From IMG/VR virus record IMGVR_UViG_2695420523_000022: a stretch of DNA of 15,244 nucleotides. One strand, written 5' to 3'. This stretch comes from a virus. Its lineage: Duplodnaviria > Heunggongvirae > Uroviricota > Caudoviricetes. This document shows positions 1,197-7,538 of this stretch, one piece after another. The notes under the pieces were generated by a model, which was given only the letters and a program-made list of their open reading frames with translations, made no database searches and was not told the DNA's origin. The first letter of the stretch is position 1, and the number at the start of each line of letters is the position of its first letter. Position numbers and translations under genes: made by a program.

Positions 1197-2858
1197 TTAC
1201 ACCCCGCTAAATTCTTCCAGTTTCTGGCGGTGGCTGTCGCTTATATCAAAAGCAAAATCCTCATGCTCTGCCTGGAATGTACCAAACGCCATCAGCGCCG
1301 CCACGCTCGGGTCTATCTTGTTCGGTGATTTTTTCTTGTTCGGCTTGATATTGGCGTTCGCGTCACTCTGCATCACGACGTTACTCATCGACCAGGACAA
1401 CACCGGATCGCCACGATGCACAATCACCCTGCGGTTAACAAAAACTTCGAACGATTTCGCCGCCGGACTGAATCTGAGGTAGGTTTGCGGGAACGGCTCC
1501 ACCTCAAAACCTGCCCCCTGTAATTGCGTTCTGAGATGCGTGGCGTTCCACGTATCAAAGCCCACCAGCCTGATATTAAATTTCTCCGCGTCCTGCATGA
1601 TGTCATCTCTGATCCGGTCGTAATCAATGCAGTCGCCAGGCGTTGTGCGTATCCAGCCTGCTTTAGCCCACTGACGATAGATGGCGCGGTTTTTATTGGC
1701 GGGGTTCTGTAGCTGGAACTCCGGCAGATAATGACGGGAAACCAGCATAATGGTTTTACCGACCGGAAAGGCATAGCACACGCTGGAAATATCGCTTGTG
1801 GATGATAAATCCAGCCCCGCGTAACACTCCTGGCCGTGTAAATCTTCCTCCGTGAACGTTCCGGCACACTCAGCCCATGCGCCGTTACCCATCCACGGGG
1901 TAGTCCCCTGACACCAGATATTAAATCGCTTTGTCATCATCTCCACCCACTGCGACGGAATACCCCGCGCTTTCTGGATGGTTGAGGCCAGTTTTTCACG
2001 ATCCACGGAAACATCAATATTAGGGTTCGCCTTTATCCACATCGCCGGATCATCAACCTCGTTTTCGTCGTCCAGTTCGTAAATCAGTACAAAAATTGAA
2101 TCGTTGACCTCTTCGCCGTCCAGGATCTGGCAGCAATAATCATAGTGCTGCTTACAGGCTGAAACGACGTTACTGCCTGATGTGGTAATAGCAAATAACA
2201 GCCCTTCGGGACGTGCGCCCATCCCCAGCTCAAGCGCGGAATAAACGCCGTTATCGGGGTGCAAGTGGTATTCGTCCACGATGGCAAGACTCGGGTTTGT
2301 ACCTTCAATGGTTGCCGCTTTTGCTGCCAGCGGCTTTAACAGGCTGTTGCTTTTCGGGTGTATCACCTTATGCGCCTGAATATTCACCCGCCTGCGTAAC
2401 GGTCGGGATAAAAGGCACATCTGACGCGCATCATCAAAGACGATCCGCGCCTGGTCACGGCTCACCGCTGCGGTGTAAATATCCTGCTGACCGTTCTCCA
2501 TAATCAGAAACCAGTCAGCCAGAATCGCGGCGGTCGTGGATTTCGCATTTTTGCGCGGCACTTCGATAAAGGCGCTCGTGTATTTGCGCCGTCCGGTGGC
2601 CTTAACCTTAAAGCCGAGGATGCACGCAAAGGCGAACTGCTGCCACGGCTCCAGCTCAATGGGTCTGCCACGCATCGGCCCTTTTACGTGCGGGCACACC
2701 CTTGAAAAGGCAATAAACCGCTCCACAACCTCACGATCGAACGTGTAAAGGGGGCTTTTAAGGTCCGAAAAGTACCGTTTAACAGCCTGTTTTAACCGTT
2801 TACAGGCCGGAATTTTGCCCGTTTTTACGTCTTCTGCGTACTTATTCCAGGCGGTCAA
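1197..2858 (-). CDS. terL: Terminase large subunit (553 aa)
   Basis: Size and translation typical of a phage terminase ATPase/nuclease large subunit; TTG start at 2858 with strong SD (AAGAGGA, 5-nt spacer) and no in-frame ATG nearby; overlaps terS by 17 nt. Confidence 0.85.
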   Translation of the reverse strand: MTAWNKYAEDVKTGKIPACKRLKQAVKRYFSDLKSPLYTFDREVVERFIAFSRVCPHVKGPMRGRPIELEPWQQFAFACILGFKVKATGRRKYTSAFIEVPRKNAKSTTAAILADWFLIMENGQQDIYTAAVSRDQARIVFDDARQMCLLSRPLRRRVNIQAHKVIHPKSNSLLKPLAAKAATIEGTNPSLAIVDEYHLHPDNGVYSALELGMGARPEGLLFAITTSGSNVVSACKQHYDYCCQILDGEEVNDSIFVLIYELDDENEVDDPAMWIKANPNIDVSVDREKLASTIQKARGIPSQWVEMMTKRFNIWCQGTTPWMGNGAWAECAGTFTEEDLHGQECYAGLDLSSTSDISSVCYAFPVGKTIMLVSRHYLPEFQLQNPANKNRAIYRQWAKAGWIRTTPGDCIDYDRIRDDIMQDAEKFNIRLVGFDTWNATHLRTQLQGAGFEVEPFPQTYLRFSPAAKSFEVFVNRRVIVHRGDPVLSWSMSNVVMQSDANANIKPNKKKSPNKIDPSVAALMAFGTFQAEHEDFAFDISDSHRQKLEEFSGV

Positions 2859-3198
2859 GCTCGTCCTCTTCTTCTGTTTCCGGTGGATTTTTACGGCGGC
2901 TTACCGGGTCAAAACCGAGCAAGGAGGCCATTTTTATCATCACTCTTTCAGCGTCGGATTTTGCGCTTAATGCGGGGTTTCTGCTCTCGCCGCCCTGACT
3001 GTTAACAATGCTGAACCCGCGTGCCGCAAGGTCTGCGACGGCTTTCCGGTATATCGAGTAATTGACGCAATACAGTTCCAGATTACTCCAGTCGGCGGGG
3101 GTAAGGTCTCCCCGTTCCGCAAGCTGCCGCGATTTTTCCCGCCACTGCTTCACGGCGATATCATCCAGGTAGGCGGGGGCTTTCGGTGGTCTTGCCAT
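2842..3198 (-). CDS. terS: Terminase small subunit, P27 family (118 aa)
   Basis: N-terminus MARPPKAPAYLDD and overall composition match the P27-family small terminase as I recall it; immediately upstream of terL. Confidence 0.75.
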   Translation of the reverse strand: MARPPKAPAYLDDIAVKQWREKSRQLAERGDLTPADWSNLELYCVNYSIYRKAVADLAARGFSIVNSQGGESRNPALSAKSDAERVMIKMASLLGFDPVSRRKNPPETEEEDELDRLE

Positions 3199-3321
3199 GC
3201 TTATTTTTTCGCCAGATTATTTTTCAAAAAATTCCCGTGCATAAAAATTTGAGGAGGCGTTCGGTGCCCGGCGGGGTCGGGTTTGTCCTGAAAACGCCCC
3301 CCACCCCGTCATACAGCCTCA

Positions 3322-3504
3322 TCAGCGATTGCGGAAACATTCCATAACCTCGCGGTCACGGTCGGTTAATCGCTTCGCTGTGATGCGTTCTGCGCGTCCT
3401 GACGCTTTATCTTTATGCCCTGTTTCCTGTGTCTTCCATGCGTCACGCTGCCTTATAAGTCCACGGATAAGGCGTTTTTGTTCCCGCTCATTCATCAGCG
3501 TCAT
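3322..3504 (-). CDS. Possible small basic protein (60 aa) between HNH and terS; uncertain
   Basis: ATG at 3504 gives MTLMNEREQKRLIRGLIRQRDAWK, overlapping the HNH stop by 17 nt; weak SD; could be a spurious frame. Confidence 0.25.
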   Translation of the reverse strand: MTLMNEREQKRLIRGLIRQRDAWKTQETGHKDKASGRAERITAKRLTDRDREVMECFRNR

Positions 3505-3928
3505 ACATCCAGTTATTGCGGTTAGCGGCCCGTTCTTCCTCTTCACGAAATCCACCTGCGGCACGCTTGCTTTTTGTTGCTGGATCAAGCCACTTCGTTT
3601 TCTGGTTATGACACGCCTGGCACAATGGCTGATGGTTCCATTCGGGCCAGAAGAGAACATCATCACCGCCATTAATCGGGATAATGTGATCCACCACCAC
3701 GGCGGGCGTATATATCCCCTTCTCAAGGCATCGCACGCATAACGGGTTTTTACTCAGATACATGGCGCGGTATTTTTCCCACTGTCTGGAGTACCCACGC
3801 GCGCGGCGGTGTCCTCGTCTGGCATCCTCTGCACGCCATGCCGCCCGCCTGTGCTCCTCACACTTGCCGGACTTAACGCGCCTGTTACAGCCTGGTTCTG
3901 TACATCGTCTTAATGGTTGCCACGGCAT
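3488..3928 (-). CDS. HNH endonuclease (146 aa), packaging-associated
   Basis: Cys pairs (CTEPGC, CEEH, CVRC, CQACH) plus DHIIP and NHQPLC motifs typical of HNH; placed directly before terS/terL as in HK97-like phages; ATG overlaps the connector stop. Confidence 0.8.
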   Translation of the reverse strand: MPWQPLRRCTEPGCNRRVKSGKCEEHRRAAWRAEDARRGHRRARGYSRQWEKYRAMYLSKNPLCVRCLEKGIYTPAVVVDHIIPINGGDDVLFWPEWNHQPLCQACHNQKTKWLDPATKSKRAAGGFREEEERAANRNNWMYDADE

Positions 3929-4224
3929 CAGTACACCCCCACATCACGGTAAGCCGTCCAGAGCGCGCCAATCGTCATGGGTACGCGCGTTTTTGCGTTA
4001 TCCGCTACCAGCTGGCGATTCTCGTACAGGTGAGCGATAAACATCATGCAGCCAATCTTTATGGCTGGCGTGAACTCCAGCCCGTCATCAAAGCGCCTGC
4101 CTATATGTATCTGGCACGCCTCAAGCGATGCGGCAATGTATCCGCTGATTAACTGGTCTTCCTCGTCGCCATCGATGCGGCAATGGAGTTTCACTTCTTC
4201 CAGGGTGATAAGTTCTTCTGTCAT
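3928..4224 (-). CDS. Head-tail connector protein, gp6-like (98 aa)
   Basis: MTEELITLEEVKLHCRIDGDEEDQLISGYIAAS matches the gp6-like connector N-terminal pattern; position between head closure and HNH. Confidence 0.65.
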   Translation of the reverse strand: MTEELITLEEVKLHCRIDGDEEDQLISGYIAASLEACQIHIGRRFDDGLEFTPAIKIGCMMFIAHLYENRQLVADNAKTRVPMTIGALWTAYRDVGVY

Positions 4225-4559
4225 TTTTCCGCGCCCTCACGACAAAGAATTTCAAGGCGTGTCCTGGCGGCATCCGGCAGCGGTTGCCCGATGATATTCA
4301 GTACACGCCCCGCCAGCGGCCCCGTATTGACCTTTATCCGGCTGGTGGCGTTGATGTCCTTCCGGTACCGTATCCAGATCCTTACGGTACCAATCGCCAG
4401 CTCTGCACCCGATGAAATGGCCTCCTTGCTGCTGATCATGTTCACGCTTGCCCAGAGTGTGTGACCGTCCTCCCACGTTTCGAGTATTTCGCCGGTTATA
4501 TCCCTGGTCTGTTTCAGGGTCTGAATCGTTACCCTGTCACGCAGTCGCCCTATGTTCAT
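4221..4559 (-). CDS. Head closure / head-tail adaptor protein (112 aa from ATG at 4559)
   Basis: RDRVTIQ...WASV...IRYRKDI...RI pattern typical of the head-tail joining family; ATG at 4559 overlaps the portal stop; the track ORF extends to 4601 but has no better start. Confidence 0.65.
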   Translation of the reverse strand: MNIGRLRDRVTIQTLKQTRDITGEILETWEDGHTLWASVNMISSKEAISSGAELAIGTVRIWIRYRKDINATSRIKVNTGPLAGRVLNIIGQPLPDAARTRLEILCREGAEK

Positions 4560-5767
4560 TCCGGTTTTTCTCCCTCGCTGATTTTTACTTCCTGTTTCCA
4601 TGCCTGGCTGAACTCATCACCACCATCACGCGGGGACAGCCCTTCACGTTCGCGGGCTTCGTTCGGGCACATAACGCCGGATTTGATGCCGCGTTCATAG
4701 GTGGCAAAGCGTTCGCCAGGTGTGGCCCGTAACAGGTCCGCGCTGTCAAACTCCACCTGATACCGGATACCAGGTACAGGCGAGGCCACCAGCAGGGCGT
4801 TTTTTATCTGCTGCTCAAAGTTCGCCAGCCACGGGCGCATTGTCATGGTGAGAAATGCGCGGCTTGCCTCGCTGAAATTGCTGTAGGTGCTGTTGCTGTA
4901 TTCCTGCAGAAAAATCGGCGAGACGTTGAACATTCGGGCGATGTCTTCAATGGTGAAGCGACGGGAGGCCAGCCATTCAGCATCCTGATTACTCATGCCC
5001 AGCTGCTGATAGCTCATACCCCCTTCAAGAATGGGCGTTTTTCCGGCGTTTCTGGCTCCTTTGTAGCGTTCCAGTGCGGCTAATGCCTGTTTGCCCTTCA
5101 CGCCGTCCAGCCATTCGCCTGACGTGATAACCCCTGCCGCCATCATGCCATCACGCATCACGCTCGCGCCGTGGCGTTGTTGGGCCAGCCCAAGCCCCAG
5201 CGATTCGCGGCAGATGGTTACAGGTGAGCGCCCCATAAAACCGTCATCCGTGGAGTAACGAAGGTGGAGAACCTCCCACGGTAAATAGTTGCGGGTGTTT
5301 CCGGTGTAGGCGTCAGTGATGCAGTAGCGCCAGTTATGCTCACCTGTCTGCTCAACGTTCACCGACTGCGGCGGGTAAGGATGTAAAGCCACCGGAAAAC
5401 CATCACGCCCCCACTGAATCACCGCATAAGCATTACCGTTTAACAGGCAGTGGCGGATCATCATTCGCTTAAACTGGTAGGGAGTCTGCCACGCGTTCGG
5501 GCGCTCGTTGAGGATGTGATCGACCGGATGAGAATCAAGCCACTCGCGGGCCTCCTTCCCCTTCTCATTGCGTACCAGGTACAGGTAACACGGCATGGTA
5601 GCCACCGCCTCAGAGATGACCGTCACGGCGTTCATGACGGCGGGCAGTGATTCCGCTGTCCCCGATGATACGTACTCACCCGCCCCCGTGTTCGATGTGC
5701 CAGCCAGCGCCATAAATTCATCAAGCGTCATGCTGCGCTGCTCTTTTTTTCTTCTGAAAAGCCACAT
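4556..5767 (-). CDS. Portal protein, HK97 family (403 aa)
   Basis: Size, composition and position between prohead protease and head closure; ATG at 5767 is 1 nt after the protease stop. Confidence 0.8.
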   Translation of the reverse strand: MWLFRRKKEQRSMTLDEFMALAGTSNTGAGEYVSSGTAESLPAVMNAVTVISEAVATMPCYLYLVRNEKGKEAREWLDSHPVDHILNERPNAWQTPYQFKRMMIRHCLLNGNAYAVIQWGRDGFPVALHPYPPQSVNVEQTGEHNWRYCITDAYTGNTRNYLPWEVLHLRYSTDDGFMGRSPVTICRESLGLGLAQQRHGASVMRDGMMAAGVITSGEWLDGVKGKQALAALERYKGARNAGKTPILEGGMSYQQLGMSNQDAEWLASRRFTIEDIARMFNVSPIFLQEYSNSTYSNFSEASRAFLTMTMRPWLANFEQQIKNALLVASPVPGIRYQVEFDSADLLRATPGERFATYERGIKSGVMCPNEAREREGLSPRDGGDEFSQAWKQEVKISEGEKPE

Positions 5768-5768
5768 A

Positions 5769-6341
5769 TCACACCCCCGCTAAATCCACCCACCAGCGGC
5801 GATTATCCGCACGCGGCATTTTTTCTGGGTGCTGCTCATACAGGGAACGGCGGGCCAGCTCCACGCCGGAATCGGGGTAAGCCGGTACCGATGTAACGGT
5901 AATTTCGTACAGTTCCGCCACCAGCACGGTGCGCACGCATGGATCTGTTGTGGTATCCCATACATCCTTACGGGAGCGAAAGCCAAAGCTCATCCCCGAG
6001 ATGTCCCCACGCTTAACCAGTTCGATAACGTCGCGCCCTGTACTGGTATCCGGTGGGGTCAGTTCAAAGCGTAACCCTGTTTCGTCCTCTTCCAGTTTCA
6101 GCGTGCCGGAACGGGTACGCCCCAGCAACATGCTGTGGTCATGCTCATACAGGCCGCGAACGTCATTACCCACCGCAAGCCATTCAGTAAACGCTCCCCG
6201 CTGGAATTTTTCGTAAAACTCCCCCCATAGCAGCTCTGAAAGCTTATCCCAGCGAACAACGTAGCCTGTAAGCGTGTTGCTGGCGCTGGTGGTGATTTCC
6301 GATGACCGGATTTCCATACTCTTCATAATTTTTTCACCCAT
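5769..6341 (-). CDS. Prohead maturation protease, HK97 family (about 185-190 aa)
   Basis: Translation typical of the HK97 prohead protease; lies between capsid and portal; start ambiguous among ATGs at 6341, 6326 and 6317. Confidence 0.75.
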   Translation of the reverse strand: MGEKIMKSMEIRSSEITTSASNTLTGYVVRWDKLSELLWGEFYEKFQRGAFTEWLAVGNDVRGLYEHDHSMLLGRTRSGTLKLEEDETGLRFELTPPDTSTGRDVIELVKRGDISGMSFGFRSRKDVWDTTTDPCVRTVLVAELYEITVTSVPAYPDSGVELARRSLYEQHPEKMPRADNRRWWVDLAGV

Positions 6342-6380: not shown

Positions 6381-7538
6381 TTAATCGTCGTCCTGTGGCA
6401 GTTCCAGAATCTTGATCGCGTTCGAATCCACCACGCCACCGCCTAAATATTTCTGCGTGAAAATTTTGATGAAGCCCGGCTCTGTGAGGTTGTCCGGTCT
6501 GGTGCGAACACCTGTTTCGTGATCAACAATGTAGTAACCGCGTTTGAAGTCACCCAGGGCAATAACGTTATCAGGCATAAACTCCAGATATTCGACCGGA
6601 AGGCCCAGCAACGTATCAGGATCACCCGCCTGTAAACGGTCGCGCCAGATGTAATCACCGTTCGCGTTCTTCACCTTCTGAAGTTTTGCCGCCGTCGTGG
6701 AGTTAACCACCCAGACCGCGTTTTTGCGGTATTTTTTACGTAATGCAAATTTCAGGTCGATCAGCGGGTCAGCAGATGTCCACGCCAGAGATTCGGAAGG
6801 TTTAATTACCTGTAACGTACCAAAATCACGCTCTTTGTCGTTCTTCTCTGCACGGGGTACGGATAAAAAGCCTTTTGCTTTTTTGTCACCGTCGCCCACA
6901 ACCAGATCGCTTTCTTCGGTTTCCGTGAAGGTGTCGCCAATCTCACCCGTCAGCCATGAAAGGATGTCCACATCGGAAAAATCCACGATTTCCTGTGTGG
7001 TGCGCGGGTACGCATAGACCGGATACAGCTTAATGCTCACCTCGTTAATCTGCGGGGTGCTGGTCTGTTCGCGTGTCTTACCCTCTTCACCGTGGTTAAC
7101 GGTCGCACCGCCAGCGGAAACAAGCTGCTTAAACTCGTTGCTGCTGATTTTCTTCACGGTACAGATGCGGCGCATGGTGGATTCATCCGTCAGCATTCGC
7201 ATGATTTCGGTGTTCAGTTCGGGGATAACGGTATAACCACCATCAGCGGGAACGCCTGTACTTAATGCGCGGGTTTCACCTGTCAGGATGTAGTTGCGGA
7301 GTTCTGCCGGGTCAGTGGTCTGGCTGCTTTTACCTGGCTTGCTGCGCTCTTCGTCTGCAATGGCTTCAAGGCGGGAAATGTCTTTATCGAGGGATTCAGC
7401 TTTAGCGCGTAATTCGTCAAATTTTGCGCCCTCAGCATCGTTAAGACTGCGGTTTTCTTTTTCCGCGTTCTCCAGCATGTCGCGCATCTGATTTTTAATG
7501 GCGGTTTTCTGCTGGCGTAATTCGATTATTCTCGGCAT
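6381..7538 (-). CDS. Major capsid protein, HK97 fold (385 aa) with N-terminal coiled-coil delta/scaffold domain
   Basis: N-terminal 100 aa are charged and helical (ELRQQKTAIKNQMRDMLENAEKENR...), as in HK97-type capsid delta domains; C-terminal part resembles HK97-family capsids; followed by protease and portal. Confidence 0.85.
   Translation of the reverse strand: MPRIIELRQQKTAIKNQMRDMLENAEKENRSLNDAEGAKFDELRAKAESLDKDISRLEAIADEERSKPGKSSQTTDPAELRNYILTGETRALSTGVPADGGYTVIPELNTEIMRMLTDESTMRRICTVKKISSNEFKQLVSAGGATVNHGEEGKTREQTSTPQINEVSIKLYPVYAYPRTTQEIVDFSDVDILSWLTGEIGDTFTETEESDLVVGDGDKKAKGFLSVPRAEKNDKERDFGTLQVIKPSESLAWTSADPLIDLKFALRKKYRKNAVWVVNSTTAAKLQKVKNANGDYIWRDRLQAGDPDTLLGLPVEYLEFMPDNVIALGDFKRGYYIVDHETGVRTRPDNLTEPGFIKIFTQKYLGGGVVDSNAIKILELPQDDD

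Follow-up and report, generated by a model that had tools for sequence, protein, structure and literature searches.

The window investigated in this study, that is, the whole stretch of 15,244 nucleotides analysed, is an E. coli capsid-forming phage satellite of the cf-PICI-like kind. Its genes follow one another on the minus strand in the order integrase, RepA-type helicase, SSB, capsid, protease, portal, connectors, HNH, TerS and TerL, and those from the capsid onward are listed with their coordinates in Table 1; the remainder of the window holds the tyrosine integrase, the RepA-type AAA_25 helicase, SSB and small ORFs. No tail or lysis gene was recognized by a Pfam match among the scanned ORFs, several of the small ones being without family assignment, and none appears in the PGAP product names on the best genome match either. 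The combination of an integrase, a RepA-like helicase and SSB without tail and lysis genes fits the published description of cf-PICIs (10.1101/2022.09.08.507074), and the gene content of the window also agrees with the one by which cf-PICIs are recognized in a later study (10.1101/2025.02.11.637232). The 501-nt stretch around the site discussed below was observed in 489 of the 5,426 complete E. coli genomes, and it was chromosomal in every case. With regard to the head-completion gene, its longest ORF overlaps the portal gene by 46 nt (4556-4601), while the start adopted by RefSeq gives a shorter product (339-nt CDS in L001), so that the true start probably lies downstream of the longest-ORF start.

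Previous studies have reported that the cf-PICIs EcCIEDL933 and KpCIDSM30104 are induced by helper phages and released in their own small capsids joined to helper tails, and that cf-PICIs use their own HNH, TerS and TerL proteins (10.1101/2022.09.08.507074; 10.1101/2025.02.11.637232). Their DNA is reported to form concatemers via cohesive cos ends, such ends being stated for KpCIDSM30104 (10.1101/2025.02.11.637232). The accessible texts on cf-PICIs, which do mention these cohesive ends, give neither the position nor the sequence of cos. That such satellites exist and rely on HNH, TerS and TerL of their own is already published, and what is new here is the predicted location of cos at the level of bases.

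Table 1. Genes and proposed packaging features of the satellite, in the direction of transcription
Feature	Coordinates	Strand	Basis
Major capsid	6381-7538	minus	Pfam
Prohead protease	5769-6341	minus	Pfam
Portal	4556-5767	minus	Pfam (Phage_portal)
Head completion	4221-4601	minus	Pfam
Head-tail connector	3928-4224	minus	Pfam
HNH endonuclease	3488-3928	minus	Pfam HNH E=1.8e-8; phrog_144 E=9e-45
Conserved small gene, 60 aa, phrog_3173	3322-3504	minus	PGAP/RefSeq, PHROG match, in-frame conservation
True non-coding region, proposed cos	3199-3321 (123 nt)	minus	ORF layout, single profile match, conservation
Box 1, G-run + GTTTTCAGGACAA (GGGGTGGGGGGCGTTTTCAGGACAA)	3283-3307	minus	nearly invariant in 39 representatives
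Variable spacer	3267-3282	minus	least conserved columns of the intergenic region
Box 2, CACCGAACGCCTCCTCAAATTTTT, predicted cleavage region (cosN)	3243-3266	minus	invariant or nearly invariant; P840/PY54 junction aligned here; register
Predicted 10-nt 3' cohesive end, 5'-CGAACGCCTC-3'	3254-3263	minus	predicted by homology
Box 3, ATGCACGGGAATTTTTTGAAAAATAAT, candidate TerS site (cosB-like)	3215-3242	minus	nearly invariant
Small terminase terS, P27 family (Terminase_4)	2842-3198	minus	PF05119 E=4e-24; phrog_83
Large terminase	1197-2858	minus	Pfam TerL_ATPase + TerL_nuclease

The HNH and terS reading frames are separated by 289 nt, in agreement with the interval of about 290 bp that the earlier note had described as the largest gap in the structural module. 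About two thirds of this interval is occupied by a gene, and the description as a gap holds for the non-coding remainder, which at 123 nt is still the largest in the capsid-to-TerL module, the next being 39 nt. The gene in question encodes a protein of 60 aa and overlaps the stop of the HNH gene by 17 nt; it is annotated by PGAP in E. coli O157:H7 (WP_000174068.1), matches phrog_3173 with E=4e-36, and belongs to no Pfam family. It is kept in frame across the relatives in the form of three divergent protein variants, all of which end in ...RDRE(V/L)xECFRNR*, and this C-terminus is retained as far as Pectobacterium. The phrog_3173 protein is basic, and the position of its gene, between HNH and the proposed cos, suggests a packaging accessory. 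The small ORF is lacking in Pasteurella Pmp8 and in ST64B, and no similarity was found between it and the ORF preceding cos in P840.

The GC-rich tract to which the earlier note had drawn attention, GGTGCCCGGCGGGGTCGGGTTTGTCC, is located at 3263-3288 and contains 77% GC. Its surroundings, which had been called AT-rich, are not so as a whole, since the GC content is 51.6% in 3199-3487 and 50.6% in the window; AT richness is confined to the 54 nt next to terS (3199-3252, 28% GC), which are adjoined by a block of 73% GC at 3253-3308. GC richness as a signal in itself was considered and rejected, as the window has 23 runs of 26 nt with at least 77% GC. Composition alone is therefore no evidence, and it is the conservation of the region that exceeds chance.

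For the conservation analysis, TerS-anchored loci were collected from IMG/VR and reduced to 39 representatives below 95% identity, and the stretch compared was 390 nt long, comprising 330 nt upstream of terS and the first 60 nt of terS. Among these representatives, 3215-3266 (CACCGAACGCCTCCTCAAATTTTTATGCACGGGAATTTTTTGAAAAATAAT) was nearly invariant, while 3269-3281, which is the core of the GC tract, and 3202-3214, immediately before the terS start, were variable. The two blocks 3283-3307 and 3215-3266 are at least as conserved as the flanking coding DNA, and they exceed most of the small ORF in conservation. Along the direction of transcription, the order is HNH, the 60-aa gene, the G-run box (box 1), the GC spacer, the predicted GC cleavage box (box 2) followed by AAATTTTT, the A/T-rich box (box 3) and terS. 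The same boxes were also found in elements of Erwinia, Pectobacterium, Kluyvera, Pluralibacter and Klebsiella, as well as in Pasteurella phage Pmp8, which has a TerS of only 67% identity. The likening of the GC tract to cohesive-end sites in the earlier note was near the mark but imprecise: most of the tract is variable spacer, and the predicted cohesive end adjoins it with an overlap of one base.

Two further observations were made on the sequence of these boxes. In codons 4-8 of terS (3175-3188), GGGGGCTTTCGGTG resembles GGAGGCGTTCGGTG of the predicted cleavage box (3253-3266), forming a direct repeat of 86% identity with its two parts 78 nt apart, which could be due to chance or could provide a second, weak contact for the terminase. 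Again, in Shigella flexneri CP182556.1 (L087), a deletion joins CCCCGCC in the GC spacer to CCCCGCC in codons 7-9 of terS. This deletion corresponds to about 3170-3275 of the window and takes out boxes 2 and 3 together with the start of terS, so the element has presumably lost its packaging site.

The records of phages that have a P27-family TerS often start a short distance upstream of terS, and the layout around the non-coding stretch of the window matches that at the physical ends of PY54/P840, YeP1 and HK97. PY54 and P840 possess P27-family TerS genes and have 10-nt 3' protruding ends (PMC10612081); HK97 cleavage likewise leaves 3' overhangs of 10 nt, and the HNH protein stimulates it (PMC11331095; PMC9410871). 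The HK97 record (NC_002167) ends in ...GGGCAGGGGGGGGGATCAAATC...GACCGCCGCCAAA and begins with GTTTGAATTTAACGCTAACCCGATTTTTTT, 49 nt before terS, and HK97 TerS binds at +15..+29, CTAACCCGATTTTTT (PMC11331095).

The 39 satellite sequences were made into an nhmmer profile, which was run against four junctions (P840, ST64B, HK97 and YeP1) placed among 2,000 shuffled decoys, the decoy database amounting to 2 Mb in total with both strands counted. Modest but significant matches were obtained for the end junction of P840 (E=0.006, 15.5 bits) and for the HNH-terS intergenic region of ST64B (E=0.019, 13.8 bits), the best decoy scoring E ~8. The HK97 and YeP1 junctions were not significant in this search, and their register alignment is consequently one made by eye and anchored on a short motif. 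The profile alignment of P840 extends from the G-run across the junction of the record into the T-tract and sets GGTAC/TGCCTGTCCC/GGTAGATTTTTACG of P840 on ggcac/cgcccgcccc/ctcaaatttttacg of the family consensus. In the same register, the left ends read GGTAGATTTTTA in PY54, GTCAGATTTTTA in YeP1, GTTTGAATTTAA in HK97 and CTCAAATTTTTA in the window, where the first base is 3253. The distance from the end of the G-run to the left end is 41-44 nt in PY54, P840, HK97, ST64B, the window and the Klebsiella and Pasteurella elements. The Yersinia phages YeP1-3 have identical ends. YeP1 has a distance of 32, ten less than 42, a difference that can be explained by the loss of a 10-nt 3' overhang, as in a blunt-ended library; relative to PY54, P840 and HK97, the interval from the G-run to the left end lacks 10 nt in the YeP1-3 records.

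Further information came from records assembled from particle DNA. A Nextera XT library of such DNA gave the sequence of vB_KppS-Ant, which matches a part of the genome of K. pneumoniae DSM 30104 at >99% identity (PMC8006926); this strain carries the cf-PICI KpCIDSM30104 (10.1101/2025.02.11.637232). We infer that vB_KppS-Ant and KpCIDSM30104 are the same element, although neither paper states so. The record (LR881103) is a linear assembly of 16,548 nt, with its start 22 nt ahead of terS and its end 37 nt past the small ORF. Its left-end flank is 100% identical to the integrated copy in ATCC 13883, and the 40 nt at each end match exactly; the integrated copy has 69 nt that are absent from the record, equivalent to 3216-3284 of the window and spanning boxes 2 and 3. 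These 69 nt are made up of 21 nt, the predicted overhang CACCCGCCCC and 38 nt; in the integrated copy, on NZ_KN046818.1 in the region 3,123,700-3,123,900, the overhang sequence stands between GGCAC and CTCAAA. Such a gap fits a linear molecule with its ends at the predicted site, whose terminal bases were lost during transposase library preparation, though trimming of the record by its authors is conceivable. As to its naming, the source paper (PMC8006926) calls the record a filamentous ssDNA phage and an induced prophage, while LR881103.1 encodes capsid, portal, HNH, TerS and TerL, being the cf-PICI of K. pneumoniae DSM 30104; the annotation of a 'tail length tape measure protein' (2036-4333) in it looks doubtful.

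In a second particle-derived record, PQ569648, apparently a chimeric assembly, the satellite part also stops in the region upstream of terS. This record (PQ569648.1, Klebsiella phage P12620-1, 106.5 kb) holds a cf-PICI in its last ~16 kb, the start codon of terS being the exact point of fusion with unrelated phage sequence, and the 'complete genome' therefore appears to be chimeric. Among the viral and metagenome contigs scanned, only two truly terminate in the region: L175, a metagenome contig of 15.5 kb, stops at GGCAC, which is the predicted blunt right end, and L152, an E. coli contig, stops at GGCACC, one base later. Both ends fall where variable sequence passes into conserved sequence, a point at which assemblers break, so that they constitute weak evidence and could be breaks in the assembly graph. 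One more apparent contig start, that of L313 at CAAATTTTTAC, was rejected because it is only a storage-chunk boundary.

Taking these data together, we consider that the 123-nt non-coding stretch on the minus strand is the cos site of the satellite, with a probability of roughly 0.85. It lies immediately upstream of terS and downstream of the HNH gene, and the window encodes, by Pfam, the proteins such a site would work with, namely HNH, TerS, a TerL with an HK97-type nuclease and the portal. It resembles an experimentally defined junction, the match to that of P840 being weak and family-specific. The family profile matches the window once (3314-3204, 104.8 bits), and the next best match in the window has E=0.11 and 5.5 bits. 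The suggestion of a satellite-specific cos between HNH and terS is supported by the gene context, the conservation across genera, the similarity to the PY54/P840 junction, the ends of the Ant record and the lack of a second site in the window. The site is very probably the feature that was to be expected there, now placed within about ten bases.

The conserved blocks might instead be a signal for the expression of terS and terL, such as a promoter or operator, an attenuator or terminator, or a translational control element, and not a cleavage site. The stretch does lie directly upstream of terS and has A/T-rich tracts, and the G-run and a C-run could pair to form a stem followed by TCAAATTTTT. 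Against this, promoter-like and terminator-like sites were not above the level of shuffled sequences, with none on the coding strand in the gap, and no relevant Rfam match was obtained. The only pairing that RNAalifold recovered joins the invariant G-run to the C-run, and for it the covariation term was -0.2 and the number of compensatory pairs 0; the similarity to the PY54/P840 ends and the gap in the Ant assembly would also be left unexplained. We regard an expression signal in place of cos as improbable, while noting that the two are compatible and not mutually exclusive. Whether the GC tract holds a conserved hairpin or RNA element was considered separately, and RNAalifold on 26 diverse sequences detected no compensatory change; a stem drawn by hand in the variable spacer had 47% of cells paired, the same as slid controls. 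Conserved structure is rejected on these grounds, and the spacer is just a spacer.

Packaging by the headful mechanism, in which the region would be a pac recognition site without defined cohesive ends, is slightly less probable still. It is true that many phages have small terminases whose pac recognition site lies within or close to the terminase gene itself. Nevertheless, an HNH gene beside a P27-family TerS and an HK97-type TerL is the hallmark of HNH-dependent cos systems (PMC11331095), the DNA of cf-PICIs is reported to concatemerise via cohesive ends (10.1101/2025.02.11.637232), and the Ant assembly is linear and of unit length, has a defined gap and is not circularly permuted. Least probable of all is a cos elsewhere in the island, for instance in the 300-720 block that had been named as an alternative end site, with some other role for the conserved intergenic region, as that block has no cos-like match, the window has no other match to the cos profile (the best hit near 714-743 having E ~1), and both assembly ends of Ant fall in the region upstream of terS.

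With the non-coding stretch taken as cos, the register with PY54/P840, YeP1 and HK97 would place the nicks at 3254/3253 on the minus strand and at 3264/3263 on the plus strand, leaving 10-nt 3' protruding ends, CGAACGCCTC; we put this exact placement at a little under even odds. The predicted left end, from 3253, reads CTCAAATTT.... The predicted overhang depends on the assumption that in the PY54 record the overhang is included at the right end (TGCCTGTCCC); the P840 record cuts the PY54-type junction 5 nt earlier than the PY54 record, and the predicted nick position is therefore uncertain by ~5 nt.

By analogy with HK97, after excision and replication of the satellite its P27-family TerS would bind the A/T-rich box inside the left end (~3215-3242) and position TerL, which, with the help of HNH, would introduce the staggered nicks in the GC-rich box 2. 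Packaging would then proceed through terS, terL, int, the capsid genes, HNH and the small ORF, and end at the next cos of the concatemer. Box 3 sits 12-39 nt inside the predicted left end and is a candidate for the TerS binding site by its position and by its make-up, a GC triplet and a T-tract as in HK97. Homology between the TerS proteins as a ground for transferring the HK97 binding site was rejected (BLASTP E=2.5, no Pfam match); HK97 TerS is not detectably homologous to that of the satellite, and the analogy is thus positional only. The G-run of box 1 ends 41-44 nt upstream of the predicted cut, and we infer that this box serves as an upstream accessory element of cos.

The G-run box is common to the cf-PICIs, PY54/P840, YeP1, ST64B and HK97, and the TerS proteins and the TerS-side sequences differ among them. 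It is a speculative and rather unlikely idea that the G-run box is a general, undescribed upstream element of 3'-overhang cos sites and that box 3, possibly with the phrog_3173 protein, determines the specificity between satellite and helper; the G-run box could, for example, act in docking of the TerL or HNH nuclease or as a termination signal, analogous to lambda cosQ. If this were true, the specificity conferred by box 3, with or without phrog_3173, would make the packaging of satellite and helper mutually exclusive. The cos site itself matters because cf-PICIs spread between species by putting only their own DNA into self-made capsids, for which the cis site ensuring exclusivity is key.

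For a specialist in phage packaging, the finding of cos at this position is no surprise. Its prediction at base level nevertheless makes it testable which box discriminates between satellite and helper, and whether chromosomal DNA beside an integrated island is packaged in the terS-to-terL direction; it may also be used for cos-plasmids or for marking satellites. The signature GGGGTGGGGG, followed by 33 nt and then ACCNNNCNCCNCCTCAAATTTTT, is available for finding related elements, and a cos site accounts for the breaking of particle-derived assemblies at this point.

Compared with the known cf-PICIs EcCIEDL933 and KpCIDSM30104, the satellite of the window displays the same order (int ... capsid-protease-portal-connectors-hnh-terS-terL) and a similar size of ~15 kb, while its replication module is a RepA-type helicase with SSB. 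KpCIDSM30104, identified here with vB_KppS-Ant, has the same three boxes, and it is there that the assembly of its packaged DNA breaks. The Yersinia telomere phages PY54 and P840 share with the window a P27-family TerS directly downstream of cos, a G-run whose end lies 41 nt ahead of the left end, a 10-mer rich in GC before the cut (TGCCTGTCCC, compared with CGAACGCCTC here and CACCCGCCCC in Klebsiella) and a left end reading (N)3-A(G/A)ATTTTTA(C/T)G. They differ in being phages of 46-47 kb and not a 15-kb satellite, in the retrieved stretches upstream of their cos being without HNH annotation, and in a low sequence identity, with GTGCATGTAATAAGATCTTTTTTTTT inside the left end as against GCACGGGAATTTTTTGAAAAATAAT, a difference that is expected from the different specificities of the TerS proteins.

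In HK97, the order of HNH gene, cos and terS is the same, and gp2 belongs to the same two TerL families. The HK97 G-run precedes the end by 42 nt, the terminal bases (GACCGCCGCCAAA) are rich in GC, GTTTGAATTTAA at the left end stands in the same register as the left end of the window, and a GC triplet with a T-tract is found ~15-30 nt inside the left end, where HK97 TerS binds. The Salmonella phage ST64B has a P27-family TerS (36.7% identity) with an HNH gene immediately upstream, and its GGGGCGGG...CTGCCCGCCCCCTCGAATTTTTATAC matches box 2 almost base for base; on the other hand, its record is circular and so without physical ends, its HNH and terS genes have no small ORF between them, and box 3 differs. 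The lambda cos (cosQ-cosN-cosB) differs from the proposed site in its 12-nt 5' overhangs, in needing no HNH protein and in its unrelated small subunit Nu1, but the two would be alike in a tripartite logic of an upstream element, a GC-rich nicking site and a region for binding of the small subunit on the side packaged first, next to the gene of the small terminase.
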